From a bacterium UBP6_UBA1177 (lineage in GTDB: Bacteria > UBP6 > UBA1177), in assembly GCA_002310995.1 (NCBI GenBank), contig DBYV01000044.1, positions 25,635-85,677 of the forward strand: a stretch of DNA of 60,043 bases, in the 5' to 3' direction. Below the pieces are notes generated by a model. The model worked only from the letters and a program-made list of their open reading frames with translations. It was not told where the DNA came from and did no database searches. This document shows, piece by piece, positions 28,817 to 49,248 of the stretch. The translations under genes and the position numbers were made by a program. The first letter of the stretch is position 1. Every line of letters starts with the position of its first letter.

Positions 28817-28831
28817 TATCTGCGTTGAAAG

Positions 28832-28865
28832 CAAATCCGACGGCTGCTCGATGCTGTTTATCTAA
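28832..28865. repeat. 34-bp direct repeat, left copy (TA cassette)
   Basis: caaatccgacggctgctcgatgctgtttatctaa; 33/34 identical to 29469-29502. Confidence 0.95.
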
Positions 28866-28893
28866 ATTCCCGAATTTCTAAATTCACAACCCC

Positions 28894-28921
28894 TTGTTTT
28901 TAGTCTGTTTTTAACTATAAT
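28894..28921 (+). promoter_or_regulatory. Promoter of the TA operon
   Basis: TTGTTT-N16-TATAAT then ttGCCG. Confidence 0.5.
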
Positions 28922-28951
28922 TTGCCGTTGTAACTTTAATTGGAGGCAAAC

Positions 28952-29188
28952 ATGAGTTACGAAGCGTTGTTGGAACAGATAAAAGCCGCGCCGGAAGAGT
29001 GCCTTGATGAAATTTCCGATTTCATCGATTTTGTAGTGTCCAGGTATGAAAAACAAAATGAAAAGGCTGATGAAAAACCGACACCGCAGCTTGCGTCCGC
29101 GATGCTTGAAGCCTTGCAGATAAGCGGTGATTCTTCGGTAAAAGGTTTCAATTCCACAAAAGAGCTTTTTGAAGATCTGAACGCATGA
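28952..29188 (+). CDS. Putative antitoxin (DUF2281-like N-terminus, DinJ/RelB-like acidic C-terminus)
   Basis: Small acidic ORF overlapping yafQ by ATGA; ends KGFNSTKELFEDLNA. Confidence 0.65.
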   Translation: MSYEALLEQIKAAPEECLDEISDFIDFVVSRYEKQNEKADEKPTPQLASAMLEALQISGDSSVKGFNSTKELFEDLNA

Positions 29189-29466
29189 CCTACACGGTAA
29201 AAACAACTTCACAATTCAAAAAGAGCTATAAACTGGCTGTTAAAAGAGGGCTGGATGTTGCTCTTTTGGAAGATGTAATCAACAAATTGAAAGAAGACAT
29301 TCCACTTGAAGAACGCTTTCGTGATCACCAGCTTACCGGAAACATGAAATTGTTCAGAGAATGTCACATTCAACCCGATTGGCTGCTCATCTATTTAAAA
29401 CAAGAAGAAATTCTGACTCTTACACTTGTTGATACGGGGACTCATTCCGATTTATTCAGAAAATAG
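29185..29466 (+). CDS. yafQ: YafQ-family RelE-type mRNA interferase toxin
   Basis: DHQLTG, RECHIQPDWLLIY, TGTHSDLF with catalytic His. Confidence 0.92.
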   Translation: MTYTVKTTSQFKKSYKLAVKRGLDVALLEDVINKLKEDIPLEERFRDHQLTGNMKLFRECHIQPDWLLIYLKQEEILTLTLVDTGTHSDLFRK

Positions 29467-29468
29467 CA

Positions 29469-29502
29469 CAAATCCGACGGCTGCTCGATGCTGTTCATCT
29501 AA
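29469..29502. repeat. 34-bp direct repeat, right copy (TA cassette)
   Basis: caaatccgacggctgctcgatgctgttcatctaa; abuts the comF stop codon. Confidence 0.95.
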
Positions 29503-30171
29503 TCAACCGAAGTAGGGGGTTCGCCTCGCAAGTGTGAGCCCGTTCACGCTTTTCGCTCCGTTTTTTTTCAAAAGTTTCGCTATTTCTTCAATGGTTGAAG
29601 CGGTCGTGCAGACATCGTCTACGATCAGAAAATTTTCTCCTTTGACGCTTCGTGTGAGGGCGAAGGCGTCTTTCAGGTTTTTTGTCCTCTCTTCGTAGTC
29701 AAGTCCTGCCTGATGCGCGGTTTTTCGCATTTTTTTCAGTAACTTGGGGTCAAATTTCAAGTCGTGCGCTTTAGCCACTCTGTCGGCTAAAATCTCGGCT
29801 TGGTTGAAAGAACGCAGAAGTTTGTCGAGAAATCTCATCGGTGGAAAGATGACAGTGCGCTTTTCAATAAGTTTGAGAGGCGCGTTTTCTGCAAGGTATC
29901 GCCCTAAAATTTCGGCGATGCTTTTCACTTTACCGTATTTCATCTCCGAAATCAGTTTTGAAATGCTTCCGCTGTAGATAAAAAGCGAAAATATTTTATC
30001 AAAATGGAGCTTTTTCCCTTTGCAGGAACAGCATCTTTCTTCACTTGGAGTGAGGGTGAAATTCCCGCATTTAGGGCATCTTCTTTCGCAGAAAAGGGCG
30101 AATTTTGCACATTCCTTACATAAAAATTCTTTATTTTCGGTTCTGCTTCCGCAAATTAAACAGGCGTTCAT
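29503..30171 (-). CDS. comF: ComF-family protein (zinc ribbon + phosphoribosyltransferase)
   Basis: CLIC/CKEC/CPKC/CCSC, SFNQAE, LIVDDVCTTAST. Confidence 0.9.
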   Translation of the reverse strand: MNACLICGSRTENKEFLCKECAKFALFCERRCPKCGNFTLTPSEERCCSCKGKKLHFDKIFSLFIYSGSISKLISEMKYGKVKSIAEILGRYLAENAPLKLIEKRTVIFPPMRFLDKLLRSFNQAEILADRVAKAHDLKFDPKLLKKMRKTAHQAGLDYEERTKNLKDAFALTRSVKGENFLIVDDVCTTASTIEEIAKLLKKNGAKSVNGLTLARRTPYFG

Positions 30172-30278
30172 TTTTAAATATCAGATAAATTCATTTGCTT
30201 ATATATGAAAAAATATTTAAATCAATAAATTGGTTCGCAGATTTTTCGCTACGCTCAAAATGACGAAATTGTCTTTTT

Positions 30279-30306
30279 TTGACTTGCATTTTCTATACCT
30301 TATAAT
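30279..30306 (+). promoter_or_regulatory. Sigma70-like promoter
   Basis: TTGACT-N16-TATAAT then ttGCGG and a T-rich leader. Confidence 0.65.
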
Positions 30307-30337
30307 TTGCGGCTTTGTTGTTTTTAAGGAGTTTTTT

Positions 30338-32575: not shown

Positions 32576-33063
32576 TGGAAGAGAAAAAGAATAACAAAGC
32601 AATTCATATCGCCTTATTTTCTCTTGTTATAATTGTTCTTTTGTTCAACGTATTTTCCTATTTTGGCGCGTCAATAATGCTGCCGGGACGTGAACTCCGC
32701 GAAATTTCAGGCTTAGATCCTCAGACCAACAGAAATGCTCGGATAGATCTTTCAAAAGGGACAGTTATTCTCAACATCTGGGCGACGTGGTGTGGAGCGT
32801 GCATTTCTGAAATGCCGGAACTCAACAAAGTTGCTGCAAAACATAAAGTTTTCGGCGTAATAAAACCCGTTTTCAAATACGAAGTTTACCGTGATGTAGC
32901 ACCTAAATTTAAAAGCGTAATCGCACAGGATGAATTTTTTGAAGATCTCTATATTTCCGTTCTTCCCACGACTCTTCTCATTAAGGACGGCGTGATAAAG
33001 AAAGTTCATGTCGGAACGATAACGCCAGATTTTATCGAAGAGTGGATAAAAAACGCTGAATAA
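32575..33063 (+). CDS. TlpA-like thioredoxin/disulfide reductase
   Basis: N-terminal anchor, LNIWATWCGACISEMP, LPTT. Confidence 0.85.
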   Translation: MEEKKNNKAIHIALFSLVIIVLLFNVFSYFGASIMLPGRELREISGLDPQTNRNARIDLSKGTVILNIWATWCGACISEMPELNKVAAKHKVFGVIKPVFKYEVYRDVAPKFKSVIAQDEFFEDLYISVLPTTLLIKDGVIKKVHVGTITPDFIEEWIKNAE

Positions 33064-33120
33064 GCGAATTTCATTTCAGAAATTTTCAAAATAGGTATAA
33101 TCTTCCGGTTTTATTTTGAG

Positions 33121-35049: not shown

Positions 35050-35053
35050 AAAT

Positions 35054-35087
35054 ATCTAAATTTCAAAATCGTTCAATAAAATTAGAT
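35054..35087. repeat. 34-bp direct repeat, left copy (ORF6N cassette)
   Basis: atctaaatttcaaaatcgttcaataaaattagat; 32/34 identical to 36128-36161. Confidence 0.92.
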
Positions 35088-35117
35088 AGTTAGATTTTTG
35101 TTCAAGGCGTGTTTTTC

Positions 35118-35963
35118 TCACAAAACAAGTTCAGGATTACTCAACAGATTTTCAATCAGCGGTTTATAAATAGCATTGTCTGCTGTTATTGTAATAGAAC
35201 AGACTTTGTTTCCTGCATCCTTTGACGATGCTCCGCAGTGGTAAATTTTTTCATTTTCAGTGCCGAAATCAAGAATGATGTATCGATCATGCAAAATGCC
35301 GTTTGTTTCTTTTGCTTCAGCATAAATCTGCTGATAAGCAAGATCAGCTTCGACAACTTTTCCATTTAAAAAGAGAAAATCCTTTTTTATTTCGTTGTTG
35401 CTGAAGTCTTCAATAATTTTAATAACATCGGTTTTTGTAACCATACTATCTTCAATTCCTTGAATCTTTTCGGACAGCAAATCCTGTCTGCTTTGCAGAA
35501 GTTTAAGTTCCTGATACGGAATCAGCTGGGCGTTATGCCTGACATAATGCGCGATTTCGACAAAAACATTGATAATCTGAATACTCGCCGCAATAGCTCT
35601 CGGAGTGTGTAAAACGGATGTAAGCATTGTTAATCCATGTTCGCTGTAAACAGTAGGGTTGTTGCTTCGACCACCTTTAATGCCCTTTGTCTGCATCGGT
35701 ATTCCAATTTGGAATAGCGATATTTCCTGATCAGTAGGTGTAAAACAGAAATTTTCTGGAAATCTTTCAATATTTCTGTTTTTTGCTTTATTCAGATTTC
35801 CAGTTGTAACACCGAAATATGCAGCAATATCTCTGTCTAACATAACACGTATTCCGCGAATCTCGTAAATCTGTGATTTCACTTTGTTTTTATCTATTGA
35901 CTCAAATAACTCCAGCTCGTTTTTCGAGCTAAAATTTTCATGTTCCGGCAAATTATTTTCCAT
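35118..35963 (-). CDS. ORF6N (KilA-N-like) domain protein, probably carrying an internal in-frame deletion
   Basis: IYEIRGIRVMLDRDIA...NIERFPENFCF...YSEHG; C-terminal HDRYIILD...CGASSKDAG. Confidence 0.8.
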   Translation of the reverse strand: MENNLPEHENFSSKNELELFESIDKNKVKSQIYEIRGIRVMLDRDIAAYFGVTTGNLNKAKNRNIERFPENFCFTPTDQEISLFQIGIPMQTKGIKGGRSNNPTVYSEHGLTMLTSVLHTPRAIAASIQIINVFVEIAHYVRHNAQLIPYQELKLLQSRQDLLSEKIQGIEDSMVTKTDVIKIIEDFSNNEIKKDFLFLNGKVVEADLAYQQIYAEAKETNGILHDRYIILDFGTENEKIYHCGASSKDAGNKVCSITITADNAIYKPLIENLLSNPELVL

Positions 35964-36127
35964 ATACAGTCATCCCCAAGAAACAATTTTTTAACAACAT
36001 GCTTATACTATAATTTAAGTTTTTATCAATAAATTTTGATTTTAAATTAAAAATTGTCGTCTTTTCGTGGCGACACAACGCAATCACCACTCGCATTTCC
36101 TCATTCTCCGAATCAACATTGTCTAAC

Positions 36128-36161
36128 ATCTAAATTTCGAAATCATTCAATAAAATTAGAT
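36128..36161. repeat. 34-bp direct repeat, right copy (ORF6N cassette)
   Basis: atctaaatttcgaaatcattcaataaaattagat; preceded by GTCTAAC. Confidence 0.92.
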
Positions 36162-36187
36162 GAATTCAAAAAAACTTCATTTTTTAT

Positions 36188-36215
36188 TTGCATTTCAAGA
36201 TTTTTTCTGCATAAT
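36188..36215 (+). promoter_or_regulatory. Sigma70-like promoter of the methyltransferase locus
   Basis: TTGCAT-N16-CATAAT. Confidence 0.5.
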
Positions 36216-36247
36216 TAACGAAGTGTTTTTTAGTCAGGGGATAATCC

Positions 36248-36355
36248 ATGAAAACAGCAAAACCATTTGTAAAGTGGGTCGGTGGCAAGAGCCAATTGTT
36301 GGAAGCAATAAGAACAAAATATCCCGAAAATATTGAGAAATATTAAAAGCCTTTT
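36248..36355 (+). pseudogene. 5' remnant of a Dam/DpnM-type adenine methyltransferase
   Basis: Manual translation MKTAKPFVKWVGGKSQLLEAIRTKYPENIEKY*KPF matches the Dam start (KPFxKWxGGK...YxEPF), then stops. Confidence 0.85.
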
Positions 36356-36445
36356 CGTGCTTGGTAGTTCCCCAAAATAAATTTGATAAAATATTGTTTC
36401 TGAATAGATTGGATCGTTTTTATTCATCTTTTAAGGAGTAGATGT

Positions 36446-37372
36446 ATGAATTGTTTGGCAGATAGCATATTCAGCTGTTTTAAAAATCAGCCTGAATTTA
36501 CATTGAAATCAGCTTATGAACAGTATTCAGACAAACCAAAAGAAACTGTCAGAGCTAGAATTTATGATAATTTAGGTGTTAAATTTGAGCGCGTTGCAAA
36601 AGGCCTTTATCGCACGATACAAGGAGAAGAAACCTGTGTCGTTATTGAGGGCGACGGACGAGATTTGTCTATGTTTAAAGATAAATCTATTGATTGTATT
36701 TTGACAGATCATCCATGGTTGGATTTGAAATCAAATAAAGGCGGAGACAGAGCTTTCGCGGAATACGAATGCTTTGAATATACACTTAAAGATTTTGAAG
36801 AAAAAAGCAGAATCTTAAAAGATGGTTGTTTTCTTGTTGAAATACTTCCTGCTGAAAATGAAAATAATTACAAGTACTTATACAAAATCAAAGAATATGC
36901 TGAAAAAGCAGGATTGTTTTATTATGCTAAAGTAACATGGAAAAAAGGTGACTTTGTCAGCAATACTGGTAGAAAAGCAAAGAACTCGCAGGATGTAATG
37001 TTCTTTTCCAAAGGTAAAGCTAGAAATATGCGGTTGGATGTAAAGAAAACTCAGAAATTAGGATATGATTGCTATATGAGCGGAACTTTGAAGATGTTGC
37101 CTACAATGTTTGATATTCCGCCAGTTTCCAAAAAGGATAAAATACATCAAAGCGAATTGCCTCTGACACTATGTGAAGAAATTTTGCGATATATTACTTA
37201 TCAAGGAGAGATAGTACTTGATTCTTTTGCTGGGAGCGGAGTTGTCGGAGAAGCCGCTTTGAATTTGAAGAGAAATTGCATTTTAATAGAAATTGCTAAG
37301 GAAAATATCAAAAAAATACAAAAAAGATTTTCGGAAAATATAAATTTCAGGGAAGATTTAGCGTTTTTATAA
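36446..37372 (+). CDS. Site-specific DNA methyltransferase (N6/N4, beta class) with N-terminal wHTH-like extension
   Basis: Motif IV variant ILTDHPW precedes motif I VLDSFAGSG; HQSELP. Confidence 0.85.
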   Translation: MNCLADSIFSCFKNQPEFTLKSAYEQYSDKPKETVRARIYDNLGVKFERVAKGLYRTIQGEETCVVIEGDGRDLSMFKDKSIDCILTDHPWLDLKSNKGGDRAFAEYECFEYTLKDFEEKSRILKDGCFLVEILPAENENNYKYLYKIKEYAEKAGLFYYAKVTWKKGDFVSNTGRKAKNSQDVMFFSKGKARNMRLDVKKTQKLGYDCYMSGTLKMLPTMFDIPPVSKKDKIHQSELPLTLCEEILRYITYQGEIVLDSFAGSGVVGEAALNLKRNCILIEIAKENIKKIQKRFSENINFREDLAFL

Positions 37373-37382
37373 AGGTGACAAA

Positions 37383-38138
37383 ATGAAAAAAATGACCCAA
37401 GCCGAAGCAGTAGTGCAAACATTAGAACGCTTAGGTGGAATTGCAACTTTAGGACAACTGAATCAGGAAGTTTTTTGTATTGAAGATTGTGAATGGAAAA
37501 CGAAAACGCCGTTTGCTTCAATAAGAAGAATTGTCCAAACAGATAATCGAATTTATAAAATTAAACCAGGACTTTGGGCATTGAAAACATATCGAAAACA
37601 GCTTGAACAACGCGGAATAATTACAGAAAATGAATTAAATCAAAACTCAACAGAAGTGCAGGAATTCAATCATTCATACTATCAGGGTTTGTTACTTTCA
37701 ATAGGAAATATTAAGGGATTGGGAACTTATGCACCGAATCAAGACAAAAATAAAAGTTTTGCTAACGGAAAAATAGATGATTTGCGTTCCATTCAATCAA
37801 TTCCTGCTTTTTCTTACGAGCAGCTTGTAAAAAGAAGTTCTACAATTGATGTTATCTGGTTTAATGAAAGAACAATGCCAGATTCTTTTTTTGAGGTTGA
37901 ACATTCAACGGATATTACGAATTCACTGCAAAAATATAATGATTTGCAGGATTTTCATACTAAGATGTATATCGTGGCAGATAAAAGAAGAGAGGAGGAA
38001 TTCTGGAACAAATTTGCTTATGCTTCTTTTGAGAAATTGAAAAGTGAAAATCGTGTGAAATTTTTAAGTTATGGAGAGTTGGACGATCAATATCAACAAG
38101 CTGTTAAACTTCAGTCTATAAATACTGTTATATTATGA
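37383..38138 (+). CDS. Putative PD-(D/E)xK-type nuclease with N-terminal wHTH (restriction-like)
   Basis: KTKTPFASIRRIVQ HTH-like region; IDVIW...FFEVEHS acidic active-site-like motif; sits among methyltransferase genes. Confidence 0.55.
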   Translation: MKKMTQAEAVVQTLERLGGIATLGQLNQEVFCIEDCEWKTKTPFASIRRIVQTDNRIYKIKPGLWALKTYRKQLEQRGIITENELNQNSTEVQEFNHSYYQGLLLSIGNIKGLGTYAPNQDKNKSFANGKIDDLRSIQSIPAFSYEQLVKRSSTIDVIWFNERTMPDSFFEVEHSTDITNSLQKYNDLQDFHTKMYIVADKRREEEFWNKFAYASFEKLKSENRVKFLSYGELDDQYQQAVKLQSINTVIL

Positions 38139-38590
38139 TTTCCTGCAAATTTTTTACTCATTCAACGGAATTTCTTTTGTGGGCGAGAAAAAGTAAGAAA
38201 GTATCGCATTATTATAATTATGAGTTGATGAAAGAAATCAACGGCGGAACGCAGATGCGGGATTTATGGACTCTTCCTGCTATTGCAAGATGGGAAAAAT
38301 TGTGCGGAAAGCATCCGACACAAAAGCCGTTGCCGTTGCTTGCTCGTATAATTCTTGCTTCAACGCATGAAAACGAATGGATTTTAGACCCGTTTACAGG
38401 CTCAAGCACAACAGGAATCGCGGCAAGCCTGCTTGGTCGTAAATTTGTAGGAATCGACAAGGAAAAAGAATATGTCGAACTCTCAAAAAGGCGCAGAATC
38501 GAGATCGAAGATCCTGCTAAAAGAGAGGAGTATCGCAACAGAATCGCACGATATAACAATCAACCTTTGTTAGAAATCCAAGAAATATAA
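38135..38590 (+). pseudogene. 3' half of a DpnA-type (beta class) methyltransferase
   Basis: ISCKFFTHSTE, GKHPTQKP, ILDPFTGSSTTG present; the N-terminal DPPY half is missing. Confidence 0.8.
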
Positions 38591-38670
38591 TAAAACTGCC
38601 GAAGATTTAGTTCTAAATTCTGAGCAAAAGACGACATATTGCGTTTGTATCAAATTTTTTCCACAACATC

Positions 38671-38698
38671 TTGACTTTTTCTTAAGATTATGTAAACT
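38671..38698 (+). promoter_or_regulatory. Sigma70-like promoter of the AbiTii operon
   Basis: TTGACT-N16-TAAACT. Confidence 0.55.
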
Positions 38699-38778
38699 AA
38701 CCGTAATTTAATCCATTGGAGGTGGGCATTGGAATTGAAGGTTAGTAGAGGTGTAGGATTGATTGATGGAGGCGAAAA

Positions 38779-39669
38779 ATGAGTAGCATAGTTTTGGAAC
38801 TCCAAAGAGAGGTGATAAGGGAAGGCTGCGATGTTTTAAATCTTCTAAGAAAAGCACATGTTATTGCTGCAAAACTCAACTTGGAAAAATTCGATAAGTG
38901 GGTTTTGTCAGAGTTAAATGGCTATAAAAACAAAGATTCCATACCAGAATATCGTTCTATAAACGGATCTTTAAAGGGATGGAATCCTTATCATGGTTGG
39001 CTTACGGTTACGTTGTTAGATAAAAGTTTGGAAAAAGTGCTTTGTACAAAAAAAGAAGGAGAATCTCTTGGGGCTTTAATTGAACTTGAAAAAAAATCTG
39101 ACGGCTTTTTTTTGATTTATTTCAATGCCGAATTGAACTCGATAGTAAATTCTTTACGTGAATTCCCTCTACCAACGCGATACTCGTTGCATTGTAGTTC
39201 ACATCAAATAAAATCAATAGTCGAACATGTGAAGAATACTATATTGGAATGGACAATTAGACTTGAAACGGAAGGAATATTGGGGGAAGAAATGCAATTT
39301 AATTCTGAAGAAAAAGAGTCAGCAAAACGGATTACTCAGACGATAAATATTTATGGTAGTGCAAATGTTATCAATGGTGATGCCCCAAACTCTGCAATTG
39401 TTGCTGGAAACGAAAATACAGTCACATATACTTCAAAAGTGCTGAATGCTGTTTCCGAAATTGAATCGTCCTTGAATAACGAAGATATTTCATCCGAAGA
39501 TAAAGAAACAGCAATTGAAATGATCGCAGACATCAAGGAAAAAGTATCGCAGGAGAAAAAGTCGAGTATTTTGAGATCTGCATTTATAGGTTTGTTAGAT
39601 TTCGTAAGTGGAGTAGGCGCCAGTCTTACTGCCGCGCTAATTCAATCGAAAATACAGGGATTGTTCTGA
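38779..39669 (+). CDS. AbiTii-domain protein
   Basis: IVLELQ...LLRKAHVIAAKL...WVLSELNGY...PEYRSI...NPYHGW resembles the AbiTii domain; hydrophobic C-terminal helix. Confidence 0.75.
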   Translation: MSSIVLELQREVIREGCDVLNLLRKAHVIAAKLNLEKFDKWVLSELNGYKNKDSIPEYRSINGSLKGWNPYHGWLTVTLLDKSLEKVLCTKKEGESLGALIELEKKSDGFFLIYFNAELNSIVNSLREFPLPTRYSLHCSSHQIKSIVEHVKNTILEWTIRLETEGILGEEMQFNSEEKESAKRITQTINIYGSANVINGDAPNSAIVAGNENTVTYTSKVLNAVSEIESSLNNEDISSEDKETAIEMIADIKEKVSQEKKSSILRSAFIGLLDFVSGVGASLTAALIQSKIQGLF

Positions 39670-39691
39670 GATATTACAGAGGTGTACTGCT

Positions 39692-40624
39692 ATGGCACGA
39701 AAGAAAGTTGAAACAATAGTCAAAGATAAAATAAAACCTTTTTTACTTAAAGACAAGGACAGTGACTTTTTGGATCAGTTATCTCGGCAATATTCTTATA
39801 GATTGCTTGTAAACAGCATTGATGAGGCTACAAAATATCTTGAATATGATGAGAATGGGCAAGTAATCGAAGCGTCAATACAACGATTCTTAAAAAAAAT
39901 CGATAGCATCGCTCATAATAAATCTCTTCCGCTAATTGAGCAAAAGATTGTTCATATAGATAATAAGGGAAAAAAATATATTATGGAGTGGGACTCGCAA
40001 GAAGCTTGTGTTTTGTTACAGGCTTGTGTCAAGGGATTGAAGTCATTAAGATGGTCAAACGAAAGAATAGTAAAAGAATTTCTAGAGGAAACTTTGACCG
40101 AGACGAGAAATGTAGAGTGGTCTACATGGTTCAAAAAAATTAAAAAATTTAATAATAAGATTAAGAAGTCGATAAAAAACGATAATAGAACTATCAAGCA
40201 ATCCGGAACGATTTTACCAGAAGGACTTTTTGTGGAACTGCCACATAATTTTGGTTCTATTTGTAAACAAATCAATGCAAGTTACGAAAATCATCTTTAC
40301 GATTGCACGGCAGTAATGATGCGCCATTTACTAGAAATTTTGCTAGTTTTATCTTATCAAAAAGCTAACATTGAGAATGAAATAATGGCCAGTGATGGAA
40401 AACATCATGTTCCGCTTGACTCTATGATAAAAAATGCAGTTAATAATTCAAAATTAGCTCTCTCGTTAAGCACAAAAAACGACATGAGACATTTTAAAGA
40501 TTTGGGTAATTATTCTGCACATAAAATTTGGTATAGCTGCACTAAAGGAGATTTAGAACCTCATATACTTAAATATCGAGCTATTATTGAAGAACTCTTT
40601 TATAAATCTGGGATTAAAAAATAA
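39692..40624 (+). CDS. Unknown N-terminal domain + DUF4145/HEPN-like C-terminal domain
   Basis: QINASYENHLYDCTAVMMRHLLE...LGNYSAH is typical of DUF4145. Confidence 0.65.
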   Translation: MARKKVETIVKDKIKPFLLKDKDSDFLDQLSRQYSYRLLVNSIDEATKYLEYDENGQVIEASIQRFLKKIDSIAHNKSLPLIEQKIVHIDNKGKKYIMEWDSQEACVLLQACVKGLKSLRWSNERIVKEFLEETLTETRNVEWSTWFKKIKKFNNKIKKSIKNDNRTIKQSGTILPEGLFVELPHNFGSICKQINASYENHLYDCTAVMMRHLLEILLVLSYQKANIENEIMASDGKHHVPLDSMIKNAVNNSKLALSLSTKNDMRHFKDLGNYSAHKIWYSCTKGDLEPHILKYRAIIEELFYKSGIKK

Positions 40625-40650
40625 GTTCTGGAACAAACCCAACAATCCCA

Positions 40651-40750
40651 CTCATTGAAATCAAATTCTGCGAAAGTCGAGTCCTTGAAGTTGAGCAATA
40701 AACACTTGAATTTATTTGGATATCCGTTTAAGGTCGAAATTTTTGACCTT
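40651..40750. repeat. About 100-bp degenerate direct repeat, left copy (decayed AlbA_2 mini-ORF plus palindrome)
   Basis: Ungapped alignment to 42731-42830 gives 73/100 identities by manual count. Confidence 0.85.
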
Positions 40751-40780
40751 AGACGAAGACCTATTTTTTTCTGATTTCGC

Positions 40781-40860
40781 GAGACGTTTCAGGAAACGCC
40801 TCTACCGATTTTAGGCGCCCCTGATTTCAGGGGAGCTGCCGCAAGCGGCTGAGGGGTCTG
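40781..40860. repeat. REP-like composite element (GTAG-type hairpin plus double hairpin)
   Basis: GAGACGTTTC-AG-GAAACGCCTC-TAC; CCCCTGA-TT-TCAGGGG; GCCGC-AA-GCGGC. Confidence 0.75.
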
Positions 40861-40985
40861 TAAGGATTGCAAATCCGCAGACAAAAATTCCAAAATAATC
40901 TTAAAATAAAAAACAAAAAATAATTTGACTTTCTTGATAAATACATAAATTTTGCTGAGATTGTTTGGAAACGGAGCCCAACCCG

Positions 40986-41099
40986 ATGACCCCACTCAAT
41001 AAACTCAAATCCGGCGAGAGCCGAACCCTTGAATTTAAGCGGGAACTGCCGCAGAATGCGGGAAAGAGGGGGAACGGCGATAATTTGGAGGAAATATAA
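40986..41099 (+). pseudogene. 37-aa mini-ORF encoding an AlbA_2 N-terminal fragment
   Basis: MTPLNKLKSGESRTLEFKRELPQNA...; the stop abuts the ATG at 41100. Confidence 0.7.
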
Positions 41100-42725
41100 A
41101 TGAATCTCGATATCAATCAAAAGTTGGACGAACTTCTTTCGATGAAATATGAAACTGAGACCGTTGAATTTAAAGAAGCTAAAGAGACTTTTGCTTTTGA
41201 TGATCTCGGAAAATATTTTTCAGCTTTGAGCAATGAAGCGAACCTTCACAATGAAAAATATGCATGGCTCGTTTTTGGTGTTGAAGACAAAAAACACAAT
41301 ATTGTCGGGACAAATTACAAAAATGATGACAAGTCTTTGCTGGCTCTGAAAGAGGAAATGGGAAAGCAGACTACAGGAAATTTAACTTTTGTCGAAATAT
41401 ATACTTGCCTTAGAAAAGCCAAAAATAACGAGGAAAAACGAGTTCTTGTTTTCCAAATTCCGGCTGCTCCGTGCGGAATGCCGGTTGCATTCAAAAGAAT
41501 GTATTACGGGCGTGACGGCGAGGCTCTTGTCGGGCTGAGTATCGAAAAAATCGAGAGGATCCGCGCCCAGAATGTTACGAATGACTGGAGTGCGCAGATC
41601 ATTCCAAACGCTACGTTCGAGCATCTTTCAAAAGAGGCGATTTCGCTTGCGCGGAAAATGTATGCCGAAAAGAATCCTCATCTTGCTTCTGATATTGAGC
41701 GTTGGAGCGATTCGACTTTTTTGAATAATGCACGGCTTACACGCGAAGGCAAGATCACCAATACGACGATCCTGCTTTTGGGAAAGCCAGAATCGGCAGA
41801 TTTGATTATTCCGGCTATCAGTCAAATTACCTGGATTCTGAAAGACCGTGACGGCATGGTAAGGGATTATGAACATTTTTACTGCCCGCTCATTGTTTCG
41901 GCAGAGAAAGTTCAGGCAAAAATACGAAATCTAACATCCCGTTACATGACCGGCGATTCGATTTTTCCGAAAGAAACTTTGCAGTACGATCCTTACATTA
42001 TCCGCGAGGCGTTGAACAACGCTATCGCTCATCAGGATTATTCAAAAGCGGGAAGAATCACCGTTCAGGAGCACGAAGACGACTATCTGATTTTCTGCAA
42101 CTGCGGCGATTTTATTCCGGGAAGCATAAAAAATGTTTTGAAAGCTGAATATTCTGCGAGCAATTACCGCAATCCGTTTCTTGCGACTGCAATGGTCAAT
42201 CTGAACATGATCGACACTGTCGGAAGCGGTATCCTGAAAATGTTCCTTGCTCAGAAAAAGAGATGTTTTCCTTTGCCCGATTACGATTTTTCAAATCACG
42301 AAGTACGCATGAAACTTTATGGCAAAATCCTGGATATAAACTATACCAGGCGGCTCCTGAATGAAGATTTGCCGCTTTCTGAAGTCTTCGAATTGGATAG
42401 AAAACAGAAAGAAGAATTCATTTCGCATAGAAACGATCCTGTAAAAGAACAAGTAAAGGAACAAGTAAATGTCCAAGAAAATGTCCAAGAAAATGTCCAA
42501 GAAAAAGGAGTAAATGTCCAAGAAAATGTCCAAGAAAAAACTCGAGAAGAAATGATACTAAATCTTTTGCAGAACAATAATACAATCTCGATACGAGAAC
42601 TTGCAGAGCAATTAAATATGACTGCAAAAACGATTCAGCGAGATTTAGATAAATTAAAGTCACAAAACCTTATCCGCCGCATAGGTCCGAACAAAGGCGG
42701 TCACTGGGAGGTGATTAAAAAATGA
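41100..42725 (+). CDS. Schlafen/AlbA_2 domain + HATPase_c_4 (RecG C-terminal-like) + HTH protein
   Basis: ETVEFKEA...SALSNEA...LVFGVED; IREALNNAIAHQDY; RNPFLA; GSG; C-terminal DeoR-like HTH ending GGHWEV. Confidence 0.88.
   Translation: MNLDINQKLDELLSMKYETETVEFKEAKETFAFDDLGKYFSALSNEANLHNEKYAWLVFGVEDKKHNIVGTNYKNDDKSLLALKEEMGKQTTGNLTFVEIYTCLRKAKNNEEKRVLVFQIPAAPCGMPVAFKRMYYGRDGEALVGLSIEKIERIRAQNVTNDWSAQIIPNATFEHLSKEAISLARKMYAEKNPHLASDIERWSDSTFLNNARLTREGKITNTTILLLGKPESADLIIPAISQITWILKDRDGMVRDYEHFYCPLIVSAEKVQAKIRNLTSRYMTGDSIFPKETLQYDPYIIREALNNAIAHQDYSKAGRITVQEHEDDYLIFCNCGDFIPGSIKNVLKAEYSASNYRNPFLATAMVNLNMIDTVGSGILKMFLAQKKRCFPLPDYDFSNHEVRMKLYGKILDINYTRRLLNEDLPLSEVFELDRKQKEEFISHRNDPVKEQVKEQVNVQENVQENVQEKGVNVQENVQEKTREEMILNLLQNNNTISIRELAEQLNMTAKTIQRDLDKLKSQNLIRRIGPNKGGHWEVIKK
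42441..42540 (+). repeat. Intragenic 12-nt tandem repeat (VQEN/VKEQ)
   Basis: gtccaagaaaat units encoding VKEQVKEQVNVQENVQENVQEKGVNVQENVQEK. Confidence 0.95.
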
Positions 42726-42781
42726 CCTTACTCGATGAAATCAAATCCGGCGAAAGCCAAACTCTCGAATTTAAACAGTAA
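42722..42781 (+). pseudogene. 19-aa mini-ORF encoding an AlbA_2 N-terminal fragment
   Basis: MTLLDEIKSGESQTLEFKQ*; ATGA overlap with the upstream stop. Confidence 0.75.
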
Positions 42782-42830
42782 CCATCTGAATTTATTTGAA
42801 AATCCGTTCGAGGTGCAATTTTTGCACCTC
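42731..42830. repeat. About 100-bp degenerate direct repeat, right copy
   Basis: Colinear with 40651-40750; contains the palindrome CGAGGTGCAA-T-TTTGCACCTCG. Confidence 0.85.
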
Positions 42831-42903
42831 GATGCAATCAATCTGACCAGCGCAAGATAACTCACCAAAATAATTCCCATTTACGTTCAAAAGCATAGAT
42901 GTT

Positions 42904-43060
42904 TCTACCGCTTCTTGCCTCCCATGAAGTAGGAGAGGTGTCACGCAGTGACGGAGAGGTCTGAGATGTTTCTACCGCTTCTTGCCTCCACTGAGTTTAG
43001 GTGTTTTTACCGATTCTCGGCTCCCCTGAAGTAGGGGAGCTGCCGAAGGCTGAGGGGTCT
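42904..43060. repeat. Cluster of three REP-like double-hairpin units (one partial)
   Basis: Units start t(c/t)taccg at about 42904, 42970 and 43006; CTCCCC-N7-GGGGAG, GTCAC-GCA-GTGAC, GCC-GAA-GGC. Confidence 0.8.
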
Positions 43061-43090
43061 ATTCGGTGTCATATTAACTGATAAAATTTC

Positions 43091-43118
43091 TTCACAAACA
43101 AAAGCAAGAGACTATACT
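43091..43118 (+). promoter_or_regulatory. Sigma70-like promoter
   Basis: TTCACA-N16-TATACT then ctCGCG and a T-tract. Confidence 0.55.
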
Positions 43119-43161
43119 CTCGCGTCATTTTTTTGTTTTTTATAAATTTTTGGAGGCTATT

Positions 43162-44376
43162 ATGACTACAAGACTTGAAAACGCTCTTAACAATCATGTC
43201 AACGAGCTCAAAGCAAAAGGAACGGCTAAAGGCGACGAAATGGTCATCACCAAAATTCTCCCGCCCGAAGGCGCAAACGGCCCGCGTTATGTCGTTGAAG
43301 GTTATGAACAGAAGTTTATCAAAATGAATTCAAACAGTTACCTCGGTCTTTCAATGAGAAAGGAAGTCATCGAAGCAGAGGAAGAGGGAACGAAAAACTT
43401 TGGTGTCGGTCCCGGTGCTGTCCGCTTCATTTCCGGAACCCACAAGGCTCACATCGACCTTGAAAAAAGACTCGCGAAGTTCCACGGCAGAGAATCGGCA
43501 ATGCTTTTCTCAAGCGCTTACGTCACTTCGATGGGCGTTATTTTCCCGCTTATCACCAATGAAACAGTCATCATCAGCGACGAGCTCAACCACAACTGCA
43601 TCATCAACGCGATGAAACTTTCCCGTCCGGCACTCAAACTTATATACAAACACAACAGCATGGAAGACCTTGAAGCAAAACTTCAGGAAGCTGTAGGCAA
43701 AGGCAAAAGATGCATCGTCGTAACAGACGGCGTTTTCTCGATGAGAGGCGACTTCTGCCCGTTCGACAAATTCACGGCGATCTGCAGGAAATACAACGAC
43801 AAATTCGAAGAAGGCGTAACGACTGTTGCTGACGATTCCCACGGTGTAGGCGCTTACGGCAAGACCGGAAGAGGAACAGAGGAAGTTACCGGCGCGAAAG
43901 TCGACATCCTTATCGGCACGCTCGGAAAATCATACGGCGTAAACGGCGGATACGTTGTCGCATCCAAAGCAGTAACCGAATTCTTGAGACAGACCGCTCC
44001 GATGTATATCTACTCGAACCCGATCACGGTCGGCGAAGCTTACGCAGTTCTCAAAGTTCTCGACATCCTTGAAAGCGAAGAAGGCATCAAACGCCTTGCA
44101 CACCTTGCAGAAATCACAGCAAGATTCGAAAAAGGACTCGTTGACAACGGCTTCGAGACGATCGCAGGTCCGCACCCCGTAACTCCGCTCATGGTCAGAG
44201 ACACCAAAAAGACGGCAGACATCGTTGCATGGCTCACGAAGAACGGCGTCCTCGCAACGGCTATGAACTACCCGGTAGTTCCGAAAGGCGACGAAGAGAT
44301 CCGTTTCCAGATCAACGCGGACCACACCGCAGCCGATATCGACTACGTAATCAACGTTCTGAAATCATTTAAATAA
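43162..44376 (+). CDS. PLP-dependent alpha-oxoamine synthase (Kbl/BioF family)
   Basis: NSYLGL, SDELNHNCII, DGVFSMRGD, DDSHG, GTLGK (PLP Lys); GGAGG RBS before ATG 43162. Confidence 0.9.
   Translation: MTTRLENALNNHVNELKAKGTAKGDEMVITKILPPEGANGPRYVVEGYEQKFIKMNSNSYLGLSMRKEVIEAEEEGTKNFGVGPGAVRFISGTHKAHIDLEKRLAKFHGRESAMLFSSAYVTSMGVIFPLITNETVIISDELNHNCIINAMKLSRPALKLIYKHNSMEDLEAKLQEAVGKGKRCIVVTDGVFSMRGDFCPFDKFTAICRKYNDKFEEGVTTVADDSHGVGAYGKTGRGTEEVTGAKVDILIGTLGKSYGVNGGYVVASKAVTEFLRQTAPMYIYSNPITVGEAYAVLKVLDILESEEGIKRLAHLAEITARFEKGLVDNGFETIAGPHPVTPLMVRDTKKTADIVAWLTKNGVLATAMNYPVVPKGDEEIRFQINADHTAADIDYVINVLKSFK
44335..44376. repeat. 42-bp direct repeat, left copy (3' end of the Kbl/BioF gene)
   Basis: gatatcgactacgtaatcaacgttctgaaatcatttaaataa; 39/42 identical to 45581-45622. 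Confidence 0.97.
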
Positions 44377-44393
44377 TCCCGTTTTTATCATCG

Positions 44394-44419
44394 GTAGAGA
44401 CGTCATAATACGGTGTCTC
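44394..44419 (+). repeat. Degenerate GTAG-type REP-like hairpin
   Basis: GTAGAGACG-tcataatacggt-GTCTC. Confidence 0.45.
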
Positions 44420-44462
44420 AGACCACAAAACCAGCAACAATCAAAATAGAAACTATTGTTAA

Positions 44463-44498
44463 TTATTATTGACAAAATAATTTCTTTGTTAATAATAA
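44463..44498 (+). promoter_or_regulatory. Palindromic operator overlapping the promoter of the hipBA-like operon
   Basis: TTATTATTGACAAA-N8-TTTGTTAATAATAA (13/14 inverted match); contains TTGACA-N16-AATAAT. Confidence 0.7.
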
Positions 44499-44552
44499 TA
44501 AAAGTTGTTCTTGTTTTTGGGGGTCGTTTTGAAAGGACACAGCATTATCGTT

Positions 44553-44852
44553 ATGCCTTCGACGCAGAAAATTCTTGAGCAAATGGGAGAGCAGATAAAA
44601 CTTGCCCGCCTCAGAAGAAAACTCAGCGCGGAACTTGTGGCGGAACGTGCCGGAGTAAGCCGTGTCACGCTTTGGAACATCGAAAAAGGCTCGCCGTCAG
44701 TTGCGATGGGAGCTTATGCGGCAGTCCTTCATGCAATCGGCGGAATGGACAGAGACCTGCTTTTGATTGCGAAAGACGACGAACTCGGGCGGAAACTTCA
44801 GGATCTCGGGCTTCTGCCGAAAAAACGGGCTCCGAAAAAGGAGGCTGAATAA
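44553..44852 (+). CDS. XRE-family HTH protein (HipB-like antitoxin)
   Basis: GEQIKLARLRRKLSAELVAERAGVSRVTLWNIEKG; start uncertain (TTG 44529 also possible). Confidence 0.85.
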   Translation: MPSTQKILEQMGEQIKLARLRRKLSAELVAERAGVSRVTLWNIEKGSPSVAMGAYAAVLHAIGGMDRDLLLIAKDDELGRKLQDLGLLPKKRAPKKEAE

Positions 44853-45596
44853 TGGCAGCGGGAGAGAAAAAAATATATGTTTACGAAAACTGGTCATCGG
44901 AAATTCCGCGCGAACTCGGTATTTTGTATGTCAGCAATGTCCGAGGAACGGAGACTTTTTCCTTCGAATACAACGAAGAATATCTGAAAAATCCTGTTTC
45001 GTGCAGTATAGATCCGGATCTGGAGCTTTTTCAGGGCAGACAGTTCACGTATCAAAAACCTAATTTCGGTATTTTTTCCGATTCCGTTCCGGACAGATGG
45101 GGTCGCACTCTCATGGATCGTCGTGAAAGATTCCGTGCAAAGGAAGAAGGGCGTAAACCTCGGACTCTGCTTACAAGCGATTATAAAAAACGGTGCAAAA
45201 CCAAAAGAGGATCTTACCGAACTCTGGAAAAGAATCGTTTTCAATATGGCGGTTTCCAACACAGACGATCACCTCAGAAACCACGGTTTTATCCTTTCCA
45301 AAAACGGCTGGAGGCTTTCTCCTGCTTACGATATAAACCCGAATCCTGCAGGAGAGGGACTTGCGCTGAATGTCAGCGAAAACGATAATTCAATCGATAT
45401 AAATCTCGCGCTGAGCACTCACAGATTCTATCAGCTTGAAAAAGATAAAGCTGCAAAAATCGCTTCGGAAATATGTCTTGCCGTCAGCAGAAACTGGGAG
45501 AAAATTGCTTCAAAACACGGAATCAGCCGCAGCATGATTGAACTTATGCGACCTGCGTTCAACGCAGCGGTTAAGAATAAGATATCGACTACGTAA
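44852..45596 (+). pseudogene. hipA: HipA-family kinase toxin, internally deleted and frameshifted
   Basis: N-terminal FSFEY...FGIFSDSVPDRWGR in one frame; C-terminal NTDDHLRNHG...LSPAYD in another; they meet near gattat at 45179-45184 with the central part absent. Confidence 0.85.
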
Positions 45597-45622
45597 TCAA
45601 CGTTCTGAAATCGTTCAAATAG
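45581..45622. repeat. 42-bp direct repeat, right copy
   Basis: gatatcgactacgtaatcaacgttctgaaatcgttcaaatag. Confidence 0.97.
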
Positions 45623-45758
45623 TCTTTTAAATCTCTGACTTAATCTCGCATTTTCCTTAAAATCGAGTATAATCCTCTGTTTTTTGTTACGTTTGAAATG
45701 TCTTTAAAATTGAAAATTTCGGTACAAATGAAAAGTCGGGATGTTTTTTGAGGGTAAA

Positions 45759-49079: not shown

Positions 49080-49160
49080 CTCAATCCTTTTATTAAATTA
49101 TTTCCAGAAACTCTTCGATTTTAGTCTTAAATTTTTTCTTGAAAAATCCATTTTTTGTAG

Positions 49161-49248
49161 TTATAAGTGCGCATAATCGGAGTTTATTGGTATTTTATAC
49201 CTGCGCATAATCGGTTTTTGTGCCGTTTTTATAAGTGCGCATAATGAA
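49161..49248. repeat. Three ~20-bp direct repeats at exact 34-bp period (core TGCGCATAAT)
   Basis: ttataagtgcgcataatcgg (49161), ttatacctgcgcataatcgg (49195), ttataagtgcgcataatgaa (49229). Confidence 0.9.

Follow-up and report, generated by a model that had tools for sequence, protein, structure and literature searches.

In a rumen spirochaete genus whose accessory cassettes occupy hypervariable intergenic hot spots, four small toxin/defence modules (M1 to M4) lie between direct repeats that are copied ends of neighboring or multicopy genes, not four private att sites. The arrangement is best fitted by "insertion with long target duplication" together with exchange at hot spots in the manner of minimal mobile elements, with toxin-antitoxin (TA) and defence genes as cargo, a reading to which we give about an even chance. 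Most likely, the modules represent a known, mechanistically unexplained route of gene gain and not a new kind of mobile element, with host recombination behind the repeats.

The window (the whole 60,043-nt stretch analyzed) belongs to a metagenome-assembled genome (MAG) that is 84% complete. All four modules were recovered between direct repeats where the original prediction had placed them, and Pfam supported the identity of the cargo in each. Direct pairs 250 to 5,000 bp apart were then sought genome-wide, with the same detector applied to inverted pairs and to simulated genomes. We detected 295 direct pairs (42 isolated) versus 22 inverted pairs (5 isolated) and none in three order-2 Markov genomes. 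The excess over controls is real, and the pairs are therefore not due to chance; nor are they assembly artefacts, since independent metagenome assemblies show identical structures. As had been anticipated, cassette content differs among congeners precisely at the M1, M4, and 35.06- to 43.08-kb sites, and the modules lack a recombinase in cis: no tyrosine or serine recombinase is encoded anywhere on the contig. Recombinase genes across the 84%-complete assembly comprised only XerD-like and XerC-like genes (the XerD-like gene on contig C35 in a housekeeping context) and one 413-amino-acid integrase gene, and no serine recombinase was found; because the genome is an incomplete MAG, a recombinase gene could be missing. 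These observations partly support the proposed route of accessory-gene gain and loss, but not its portrayal as four equivalent minimal cassettes with repeats private to each. The M1 and M2 repeats belong to dispersed families, and three of the four repeats are pieces of multicopy sequences: a gene tail (M1), a promoter-side palindrome (M2), and a gene start (M3). Duplication length also varies, from ∼22 to 50 nt for the M1-type tail to 44 nt at M4 and ∼100 nt at M3.

Duplicated gene ends at M1 and M4

The M1 pair (detected at 28832-28874 and 29469-29511; spacing, 637; 34 nt at 97% identity) corresponds to the last 11 to 12 codons (KSDGCSMLFI*) of a multicopy secreted-protein gene, here named geneX. 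Its surroundings are as follows.

28559-28816, + strand: TSCPD-domain gene (Pfam PF12637), left flank of the M1 hot spot, kept in all congeners
28827-28865, + strand: left repeat, remnant of a deleted geneX (its final 39 nt: GAAAGC + AAATCC...ATCTAA)
28952-29466, + strand: type II TA pair (Pfam), with a DUF2281-like antitoxin (28952-29188) and a YafQ/RelE-type toxin (29185-29466)
29467-29502, + strand: right repeat, CAC plus the 33-nt geneX tail in its resident-type variant (C)
29503-30171, − strand: ComF-like phosphoribosyltransferase gene (Pfam PF00156 and DZR_2; synteny), conserved right flank of the hot spot

Homology among congeners ends at the stop codon of the TSCPD gene, beyond which the site is empty, holds geneX alone, or holds other cassettes. 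Intact geneX occupies the place of the left repeat in G007, G006, and G012, relative to which its body is visibly deleted in the window; both geneX and the repeat are missing from G002 and G010. An intermediate allele on metagenome contigs (L089) keeps an intact geneX ahead of the repeat, the TA pair, and a second repeat. The two repeats have a polarity: the left one, coding for ..SKSDGCSMLFI*, is the cassette-type variant with T at the variable site, whereas the right one is of the resident type, matching exactly the ends of geneX that G007 and G006 carry at the same locus. The right repeat begins directly past the toxin stop codon (TAG) and abuts the stop codon of the comF-like gene. The same polarity was seen when contig C63 of the window's own genome (empty) was compared with G007 locus L065, where an ATPase cassette is accompanied by a 48- to 50-nt duplication. 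The TA promoter (TTCACA...TATAAT, 28866-28901) is also found in other cassettes, the segment 28832-28901 is 94% identical to C35:78828-78897 of the same genome, and the TA cassette recurs at other loci in G014, G005, and G003.

Across the genus, a 33- to 36-nt geneX tail parts stacked cassettes encoding TA pairs, lipoproteins, an ATPase, AlbA_2, and an acyltransferase, in arrays of two to four (L064, L073, L066, L076, and G014:C32). One and the same cassette-end/repeat junction faces at least four different right flanks in the case of the ATPase cassette, and likewise for a lipoprotein cassette. Once a tail copy has ceased to be the end of a gene, it decays: the motif was intact in 50 of 52 genuine tails versus 20 of 35 orphan tails. 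The left boundaries of orphan tails fall within a few nucleotides of AAATCC in ∼8 to 10 unrelated contexts, which counts against host recombination because random illegitimate joining does not predict such clustering.

This clustering, seen across many contexts, instead favors a view of the geneX tail, and perhaps the 37-nt palindrome of M2, as a true attachment site at which a trans-acting site-specific enzyme (hijacked XerC/D, the single integrase, an HUH enzyme, or a novel one) moves promoter-bearing cassettes into integron-like arrays without an adjacent integrase. Up to four co-oriented repeats part unrelated cassettes, cassette ORFs stop 0 to 5 nt ahead of the repeat as in integron cassettes, the identical TA cassette has different right flanks, and the genome carries a RAYT-like HUH gene along with its Xer genes. 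However, the repeat is plain coding sequence that varies at synonymous sites and has no dyad symmetry, and a folding test of the repeats found no attC-like fold. Orphan copies are free to decay, duplication length is variable (∼22 to 50 nt), and neither an IntI-like gene, attI, nor a serine recombinase was found in the 84%-complete assembly, the XerD-like gene on C35 standing in a housekeeping context. The M4 repeat, moreover, is unique and wholly different, and hipBA in G012 has no second repeat. We consider a dedicated attachment site unlikely.

At M4 (44335-44378 and 45581-45624; spacing, 1,246; 44 nt at 93% identity), the repeat is a 44-bp duplication of the final 14 codons of an aminotransferase gene.

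43162-44376, + strand: class I/II aminotransferase gene (Pfam PF00155), conserved genus-wide, the intact M4 target
44335-44378, + strand: left repeat, the 14 codons that now end the functional gene, in the incoming variant (TCA TTT AAA TAA)
44529-45596, + strand: hipB (44529-44852; Pfam HTH_31 HipB) and broken hipA (44852-45596; Pfam HipA N-terminal piece)
45581-45624, + strand: right repeat, the resident version of the aminotransferase gene 3′ end, now displaced (TCG TTC AAA TAG)

The two copies differ at three positions; since all are synonymous or in the stop codon, the left repeat is a foreign allele of the aminotransferase end. Empty sites in G001:C177 and G014:C32 have a single copy, of the right-repeat variant, followed by matching downstream sequence. 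In G012, a donor-like arrangement of aminotransferase gene, hipB, and hipA is followed by a different gene, and the second repeat is absent. L098 and L099 have a G012-like left-repeat region and a right repeat that starts straight after the hipA stop codon and has decayed, with nonsynonymous changes. A sliding-window comparison showed no clear G012-type 3′ segment in the window's aminotransferase gene, a point against host recombination. hipA is intact in G012, L098, and L099 (415 to 418 amino acids); the window copy has an internal deletion of ∼520 bp and a 2-nt insertion ahead of its stop codon.

Such decay of hipA could also mark the modules as leftovers of larger integrative elements whose integrase and cargo were deleted, leaving TA/defence genes between old attL and attR sites. 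Integrase-borne islands typically integrate at the 3′ end of a gene and supply a replacement end, which fits the layout described above, and TA genes resist loss. However, no integrase fragment was present in or near any module, minimal hipBA with intact hipA occurs in several independent assemblies, and that of G012 lacks an attR. The TA cassette, for its part, opens with a promoter normally found after geneX, which makes its left side native context, not the end of an element. An origin from larger elements is therefore very unlikely.

M2, M3, and the variable island

Both remaining modules lie in a variable island that also contains an NmeDI-like restriction-modification (RM) remnant, AbiTii with an unknown gene, and REP-like elements.

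35051-43075, strand not applicable: variable 8-kb island between the transglutaminase-like and aminotransferase genes (comparison with G012:C65 and G008:C86)
35051-35087, strand not applicable: M2 left repeat, a solitary 37-nt palindromic element (ATCTAAATTT-14 nt-AAAATTAGAT)
35118-35963, − strand: ORF6N-domain gene (Pfam PF10543), 281 amino acids versus 339 to 340 in orthologues of G012 and G004
35964-36161, − strand: conserved leader/promoter region (about 130 to 210 bp) ending in the M2 right repeat (36125-36161)
40642-40749, + strand: M3 copy 1, a degenerate AlbA_2 start fragment plus hairpin
40986-41099, + strand: M3 copy 2, an AlbA_2 start mini-ORF of 37 codons (MTPLNKLKSGESRTLEFK...)
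41100-42725, + strand: AlbA_2/Schlafen-type gene (Pfam SLFN_AlbA_2, HATPase_c_4, and wHTH)
42722-42829, + strand: M3 copy 3, an AlbA_2 start fragment (MTLLDEIKSGESQTLEFKQ*) plus hairpin
42846-43060, strand not applicable: cluster of REP-like dispersed repeats, with more copies at 40794-40880

G012:C65 and G008:C86 lack the stretch from 35.06 to 43.08 kb; there, the two flanking genes adjoin, and the junctions share a TAAAAT-type microhomology. The M2 pair (35051-35087 and 36125-36161; spacing, 1,074; 37 nt at 92% identity) begins 1 nt past the stop codon of the transglutaminase-like gene, and its left copy forms a weak hairpin (z = −2.1). The leader of a neighboring unit stands ahead of the corresponding copy in G012, G007, and G004. 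Leader copies 84 to 90% identical are found ahead of DUF1016-like, KilA-N-like, and ORF6N genes and beside hsdM, at five places elsewhere in the same genome (C57:7883-8088, C8:28165-28294, C8:29514-29583, C38:58102-58232, and C18:4093-4190). M2 is one unit of a tandem "gene-leader-palindrome" family in which the palindrome closes each unit.

The M3 pair (40650-40749 and 42730-42829; spacing, 2,080; 100 nt at 74% identity) was accompanied by a third partial copy detected at 40986-41046. A simple bracket or target duplication was ruled out for M3: it contains three AlbA_2 start fragments, and copy 1 with its right flank is collinear with a single copy in G007. The stop codon of copy 2 touches the ATG of the main AlbA_2 gene, which has an internal 12-nt tandem repeat (42440-42563) and copies 92 to 93% identical elsewhere in G002 and G013. 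A fragment equivalent to copy 2, plus GGAAATATAA, lies on contig C38 ahead of a RAYT-like gene. The REP-like family, with many copies in the same genome (C8, C22, C38, C46, C39, and others), flanks a RAYT-like HUH gene (C38:49099-50151). At both M2 and M3, a recent homologous crossover is not evident, because the repeats now share just 11 to 16 nt of perfect identity.

The structure of these two modules lends itself to an explanation without insertion, in which the bodies of tandem geneX, ORF6N/KilA-N, or AlbA_2 paralogues were deleted and only gene ends remain. M2 is a unit of a tandem family whose neighboring unit is absent from the window, M3 holds three start fragments of which G007 has the first alone with the same right flank, and the geneX body is visibly deleted at M1; G005 has the order geneX1-TA-geneX2, and tandem geneX pairs occur on C30 and C18 of the same genome. 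However, the M4 aminotransferase gene is single copy and its empty sites are clean, in L089 and L065 the target gene is intact and its tail duplicated but no trace of another gene body is seen, and independent deletions would not stop at a near-identical nucleotide in many contexts. We find an origin as paralogue relics quite unlikely.

Proposed route of module gain

Instead, the host's general recombination machinery probably placed the modules, which have no recombinase of their own, and the M4 and M1 repeats would be long target duplications. Incoming DNA would bring its own copy of the last 33 to 50 bp of the target gene. The join on the repeat side would be homologous, either within the gene or through a Campbell-type single crossover in the short common end, and the second would fall directly past the stop codon of the cassette's final gene. 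Given this layout, the target gene would remain intact, ending with the incoming version of the tail, and the resident tail would be pushed downstream as a dead copy. The short conserved ends (the 33- to 36-nt geneX tail, the 37-nt M2 palindrome, and the AlbA_2 start fragment of M3) could then serve as portable homology for module loss, swapping, and stacking into arrays.

We infer that the pathway combines RecA-type recombination with illegitimate joining, possibly following DNA uptake. Of the routes originally proposed, short-homology recombination agrees with the data more closely than dedicated integrases do, because the 84%-complete assembly has only XerC/D-like genes and one integrase gene and because hipBA in G012 lacks a second repeat. 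The competence genes noted in the window are present (ComM, 18954-20507; ComF-like, 29503-30171), as is comEC in the genome, but comF, comM, and comEC are widespread genes. Repeats of 33 to 44 bp, in addition, are short for efficient RecA recombination.

Comparison with known systems

Like integron arrays, those described here consist of compact cassettes in one orientation, with many TA pairs, no recombinase inside the cassettes, and a short recurring sequence that begins straight after each stop codon. Unlike in integrons, this sequence is conserved host-gene coding sequence and not a structured, imperfectly palindromic site containing RYYYAAC/GTTRRRY cores, an attC-like fold is absent, IntI and attI were not found in the assembly, and the cassettes have their own promoters. 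In CIMEs, Xer-dependent IMEX, and pdif modules, small cargo, often TA, likewise lies between short sites, and the recombinase is encoded elsewhere. Those sites are defined recombinase-binding sites (e.g., 28-bp dif-like, 11-6-11), whereas the M1 and M4 repeats lack dif-like architecture and no cognate recombinase was identified in this genome.

Arrays of orphan toxin/immunity modules located downstream of cdiA and rhs offer another parallel: a main gene is followed by modules, each of which borders on a short piece of that gene's conserved region, and this piece provides homology for recombination and swapping. There, the piece is 5′ to an orphan toxin domain, and the main protein acquires a changed C terminus upon recombination; here, it is the extreme 3′ tail (geneX) or the 5′ start (AlbA_2), and the cassettes are independent genes.

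The TSCPD/comF and transglutaminase/aminotransferase hot spots behave like the minimal mobile elements of Neisseria (Saunders & Snyder 2002; Snyder et al. 2007, as cited in PMC3787668), in which, as summarized there, alternative cassettes without a recombinase lie between the same conserved flanking genes and exchange is ascribed to homologous recombination following DNA uptake. By that definition, minimal mobile elements need no repeats, whereas the present cassettes are flanked by short duplicated gene ends that also recur within arrays.

The basic phenomenon is already in the literature as the insertion of RM units with long target duplication (Nobusato et al. 2000; Furuta, Abe & Kobayashi 2010 [PMC2853133]), found mostly in naturally competent species and including 46-bp repeats that overlap a gene 3′ end in Haemophilus influenzae (PMC2853133). 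In both cases, a small unit without a mobility gene lies between direct repeats of >30 bp that are a duplicated piece of the target, related genomes carry single-copy empty sites, and the repeat varies in length and may overlap the 3′ end of the neighboring gene; the mechanism of RM insertion is itself unexplained. The cargo here, in contrast, consists of TA/defence genes and lipoproteins instead of RM units, which excludes DNA breakage by the cargo as the general cause. Also unlike in RM units, the geneX tail is multicopy and has been used repeatedly as a target, giving rise to arrays, and the left repeat can be recognized as a gene-end allele of foreign origin.

Repeat-bracketed modules in the window and across the genome

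The window comes from a metagenome-assembled genome (MAG; 2.31 Mb, 84% complete), which we compared with 14 other species-level genomes of the genus; the congeners are rumen MAGs, some of them labelled 'uncultured Spirochaetales'. All four direct-repeat pairs of the original prediction were found where it had placed them, with every repeat longer than 30 bp, and Pfam searches recovered the enclosed genes as it had described them (YafQ toxin-antitoxin [TA] pair, ORF6N, AlbA_2, and hipB/hipA).

Repeat pairs of the four modules (window coordinates)
M1, 28832-28874 / 29469-29511: repeats of 34-39 nt, spacing 637, around a YafQ toxin gene and a DUF2281-like antitoxin gene
M2, 35051-35087 / 36125-36161: repeats of 37 nt, spacing 1074, around an ORF6N gene
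M3, 40650-40749 / 42730-42829: repeats of about 100 nt at 74% identity, spacing 2080, third partial copy at 40986, around one gene with AlbA_2/HATPase_c_4/HTH domains
M4, 44335-44378 / 45581-45624: repeats of 44 nt, spacing 1246, around hipB and a hipA lacking about 520 bp

The M1 toxin matched PF15738 (1.4e-33), with the DUF2281-like gene upstream and overlapping, and M4 carried an HTH_31 HipB and a Couple_hipA fragment. By adjacency and family domains both are predicted type II TA modules, the hipA of the window being broken. As anticipated, ComM and a ComF-like gene are both present in the window and no recombinase lies in cis: tyrosine (PF00589) and serine (PF00239) recombinase matches were absent from the contig, the Pfam content of all four modules held no recombinase or transposase domain, and these searches found no integrase within the repeats and no cognate integrase. 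The idea that each module has a repeat of its own was not supported: the M4 repeat is unique, but that of M1 has about 10 copies in the same genome and that of M2 about six.

A detector for pairs of at least 28 nt and at least 85% identity, 250 to 5,000 bp apart, returned 295 direct pairs (42 isolated) and 22 inverted pairs (5 isolated) from the 2.31-Mb genome. The identical detector found no pairs in three order-2 Markov simulated genomes, and the predicted excess over controls was thus borne out (295 direct pairs versus 0). Independent metagenome assemblies show the same structures, which rules out an assembly artefact. Further single accessory genes lie between isolated direct repeats of 30-43 nt at C10:8831-9518, C46:759-2126, C57:3080-4417, and C8:12745-13430 (contigs of the same genome); by sequence inspection they are Bro/KilA-like, DUF1016-like nuclease, RhuM-like (adjoining hsdS), and ORF6N genes, in that order, and hairpins or REP-like elements make up part of the repeats.

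Allelic states of the module sites in related genomes

The M4 repeat consists of the final 14 codons and stop of a single-copy aminotransferase gene. Clean empty sites were found in two congeners (G001 and G014), where one repeat copy, of the same variant as the right M4 repeat of the window, is followed by the same downstream sequence as in the window. The left repeat, which now forms the end of the gene, differs from the right one at three positions, all synonymous or stop positions, and therefore reads as a foreign allele of the same gene end. The same insertion, there with an intact hipA (418 aa, full HipA_C), is found in two metagenome contigs, L098 and L099, in which the right repeat begins immediately after the hipA stop codon and has acquired nonsynonymous changes, as would be expected of a dead copy. 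In a third congener, G012, the order is aminotransferase-hipB-hipA (415 aa), then a different gene, with no right repeat, which is the arrangement expected of a donor. A sliding-window identity analysis of the aminotransferase gene in the window brought out no clear mosaic 3' segment of the G012 type. In every respect that defines the class, M4 is an 'insertion with long target duplication'. Next to M4, at 45741-49079, lie large genes for Lcl_C-domain lipoproteins.

At M1, the repeat is formed by the last 11-12 codons (KSDGCSMLFI*) of geneX, a multicopy gene for a secreted protein. The site lies between a TSCPD gene and the comF-like gene, and its content varies between relatives, as does that of the site between the transglutaminase-like and aminotransferase genes, in keeping with the presence/absence variation that had been proposed. 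Three genomes (G007, G006, and G012) have an intact geneX with one tail, two (G002 and G010) lack both geneX and the repeat, and in others the site is filled by about 3 to 13 kb of inserted DNA. The expected intermediate was found in a metagenome contig, L089: intact geneX, tail, identical TA pair, second tail. The M1 of the window is, by comparison, a derivative that has lost the geneX body, with a right repeat of the resident variant and a left repeat of the cassette variant. Two other contigs (L090 and L093) were considered as donor-like TA alleles without a right repeat; the first 16 nt of that repeat are present, making them truncated derivatives. In one metagenome variant, L087, two Lcl_C lipoprotein genes separate the TA right repeat from the comF-like gene, and no extra repeat accompanies them.

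M2 and M3 lie in an island (35051-43075) that is wholly absent from G012 and G008, whose junctions show microhomology of the TAAAAT type. The M2 repeat is a 37-nt palindrome (10-nt arms, 14-nt spacer, weak hairpin) that closes a conserved leader/promoter region of 130-210 bp. Elsewhere in the genome, copies of this leader stand between type I hsdM and DUF1016-like, KilA-N-like, or ORF6N genes, named by inspection, and gene-leader-palindrome units occur in tandem in G012:C25 (three in a row), G007:C4, and G004:C49. The left M2 copy, which abuts the stop codon of the transglutaminase-like gene, is a palindrome whose own unit, once the neighbour on that side, is missing. An empty site with a single palindrome was not seen for M2, the island-less junction of G012 and G008 having no palindrome. 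Other content of the island includes what remains, over 32 codons, of the start of a Dam-type methyltransferase gene (MKTAKPFVKWVGGKSQLL...; 36249-36347) directly after the right M2 repeat, followed by an NmeDI-like restriction-modification (RM) cluster (36446-38590: N6_N4_Mtase, NmeDI_C, and an N6_N4_Mtase fragment), and an AbiTii gene (PF18864) with a 310-aa gene lacking a Pfam match (38779-40624). The last two are 85% conserved at a different chromosomal place in G007 (contig C1) and so move as a pair.

The M3 repeats are AlbA_2 start fragments (M..L..KSGES.TLEFK) followed by a hairpin. G007 has a single copy after the same upstream gene, collinear with copy 1 of the window including its right flank; the M3 pair is therefore not a target duplication, and a simple bracketed insertion around AlbA_2 was rejected. 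The M3 pattern suggests instead that the starts of AlbA_2 genes were repeatedly replaced or decayed. A similar start fragment with GGAAATATAA precedes a RAYT-like gene on contig C38 of the same genome (49099-50151; 350 aa), which has an HUH-like motif (LMPDHLHAVW), no Pfam match, and a subthreshold match to the REP-associated tyrosine transposase model NF047646 (E = 4e-5, 23 bits, cut-off 80). Perfect 35-bp repeats flank this gene (region 48813-50474) and belong to a dispersed REP-like family also present in the island of the window (40794-40880 and 42846-43060). The AlbA_2 gene itself contains seven copies of a 12-nt tandem repeat in its 3' part (42440-42563), and its segment 42235-42469 is 96% identical to C8:20359-20592 of the same genome.

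geneX tails, cassette arrays, and the probable route of cassette placement

geneX proteins are secreted, Cys-rich, and Asp/Thr/Glu-rich, and all end in KSDGCSMLF(I/V)*; no known family was matched in Pfam or NCBIfam. Seven more copies of the gene are present in the genome of the window.

geneX and tail sites in the genome of the window
Window, 28827-28865: geneX tail
C35, 75926-76891: geneX/tail site
C30, 15097-17639: geneX/tail site
C18, 22142-26745: geneX/tail site
C48, 105637-106497: geneX/tail site
C63, contig end: geneX/tail site

The KSDGC tail also occurs on unrelated proteins (a 534-aa protein on C30 and a 273-codon ORF in locus L067), and in this rumen genus it may act as a C-terminal signal for sorting or lipidation that has not been described before. 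Across the genus we counted 87 distinct tail copies, 52 of which end geneX-type genes; the other 35 are orphans that follow unrelated genes, often 0-5 nt past the stop codon. Of the 52 genuine tails, 50 keep an intact motif, versus 20 of the 35 orphans, indicating that orphans decay. In several places tails alternate with cassettes in the form geneX-tail-cassette-tail-cassette-tail.

Arrays of tails and cassettes
L064: at the TSCPD locus, as in the window
L073, L065, L066, and L076: further array loci
G014, contig C32: four tails, three DUF2281-type TA pairs
Genome of the window, contig C35: array

Array cassettes include YafQ, PIN, and DUF3368 TA pairs, DUF4160, acyltransferase, and serpin lipoprotein genes, an AAA_14/DUF4143 ATPase, an AlbA_2 gene, and a metallo-beta-lactamase-fold protein. 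For the ATPase cassette and a lipoprotein cassette, one and the same cassette-end/tail junction stands before at least four different right flanks; modules are thus reshuffled at the tail. A clean presence/absence pair is provided by C63 (geneX-tail-lipoprotein) and L065 of G007 (geneX-tail-ATPase-tail-lipoprotein), with a duplication of 48-50 nt and the same polarity as at M1. Decay of tandem paralogues accounts for parts of M1, M2, and M3 and fails for this pair, for the L089 intermediate, and for M4.

In one small lipoprotein family, found in relatives and metagenome contigs (L047, L105, L110, L115, L125, and L053), the proteins end in ...TFEF, followed by a stop, one codon, and an in-frame KSDGC tail. 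The stop changes type (TAG, TGA, TAA) at a fixed position before a well-kept tail, which could reflect recent truncation, gene conversion, or read-through. In-frame stops before orphan tails were set aside as a mechanistic clue: they largely trace to tail-bearing lipoprotein genes with a stop just before the tail, together with junctions related by descent. Similar GTTTAG endings may mark the loss of an acyltransferase gene that lay between them.

As to how cassettes are placed, three tyrosine recombinases were found in the 84%-complete assembly (one XerD-like, one XerC-like, and an integrase of 413 aa), whose proteins gave no match to a serine recombinase. Neither the geneX tail nor the M4 repeat has a fold or dyad symmetry, and the M1 repeat folds no better than shuffled sequences (z = +0.6 and +0.3 on the two strands). 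The duplications differ in length: about 22 to 50 nt at geneX, 44 nt at M4, and about 100 nt at M3. Given this recombinase set, the lack of a fold, orphan decay, varying duplication length, and the donor-like G012 allele, we favour general recombination as the probable route. The shared gene end would provide the homology for one join, either in a double event whose second join is illegitimate or in a single crossover of the Campbell type; afterwards, the duplicated gene end would serve again as portable homology. The comF-like, comM, and comEC genes are present but not diagnostic of competence, the natural transformability that the minimal mobile element concept assumes of its host. A phage origin of the repeats was rejected, the M1 repeat and M2 palindrome both being absent from a viral contig collection.

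General recombination leaves two points unexplained: orphan left boundaries cluster near AAATCC in roughly 8-10 unrelated contexts, and the homology is short. Both keep a trans-acting site-specific activity at the geneX tail a live, though unlikely, rival. We consider it rather improbable that a cassette-capture system new to this rumen spirochaete genus and not described before uses the last 33-36 nt of geneX as its attachment site. In such a system, an enzyme encoded at another place, or an unusual host pathway, would insert, excise, and stack TA, defence, and lipoprotein cassettes that bring their own promoters, and integron-like arrays would arise without an integron integrase.

Comparison with known systems

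To our knowledge, insertions with long target duplication have been catalogued for more than 20 years without a mechanism. They have been thought to be tied to DNA cutting by RM genes. Since the same footprint is found here around TA, defence, and lipoprotein genes, the cargo cannot be the cause. The genus offers an unusually informative natural experiment, in which one short multicopy target is used repeatedly and public rumen metagenomes contain empty, intermediate, stacked, and decayed alleles; the pathway is therefore testable (recA dependence, crossover position, role of DNA uptake). This gives small defence and TA genes a way to spread and to form stacks that needs no mobile-element machinery, which bears on how defence islands in uncultured gut bacteria are interpreted.

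Insertion with long target duplication was described for RM units, with 46-bp repeats overlapping a gene 3' end in Haemophilus influenzae among the examples (Furuta et al. 2010; PMC2853133). M4 and M1 share with it single-copy sites in relatives (G001 and G014 for M4; G007, G006, and G012 for M1, with L089 duplicated), and all four modules share the lack of a mobility gene. M3 differs, the G007 copy aligning with copy 1 only. By the definition of the class, the repeat is not a high-copy dispersed one; the M4 repeat is unique, and the M1 and M2 repeats have about 10 and six copies. The 'minimal mobile element' concept (PMC3787668) matches the behaviour seen here: relatives have different content between the same flanking genes without mobility genes (empty, geneX, TA, or about 3 to 13 kb at the TSCPD/comF-like site; 0 or 8 kb at the transglutaminase-like/aminotransferase site).

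In integrons, attC is an imperfect palindrome with R''/R' cores that folds as a single strand, whereas the M1 repeat is conserved coding sequence. Folded attC-like sites were ruled out for M1 and M4, M2 having a weak hairpin only. No IntI-type integrase with attI was found beside the arrays, and no tyrosine recombinase stood in an integron-like layout in the 84%-complete assembly; the recombinase near the C35 array is XerD-like and belongs to a housekeeping operon. The basic behaviour matches what is already known as insertion with long target duplication and minimal mobile elements. It departs from them in the non-RM cargo and the reuse of a multicopy gene tail, giving integron-like arrays.
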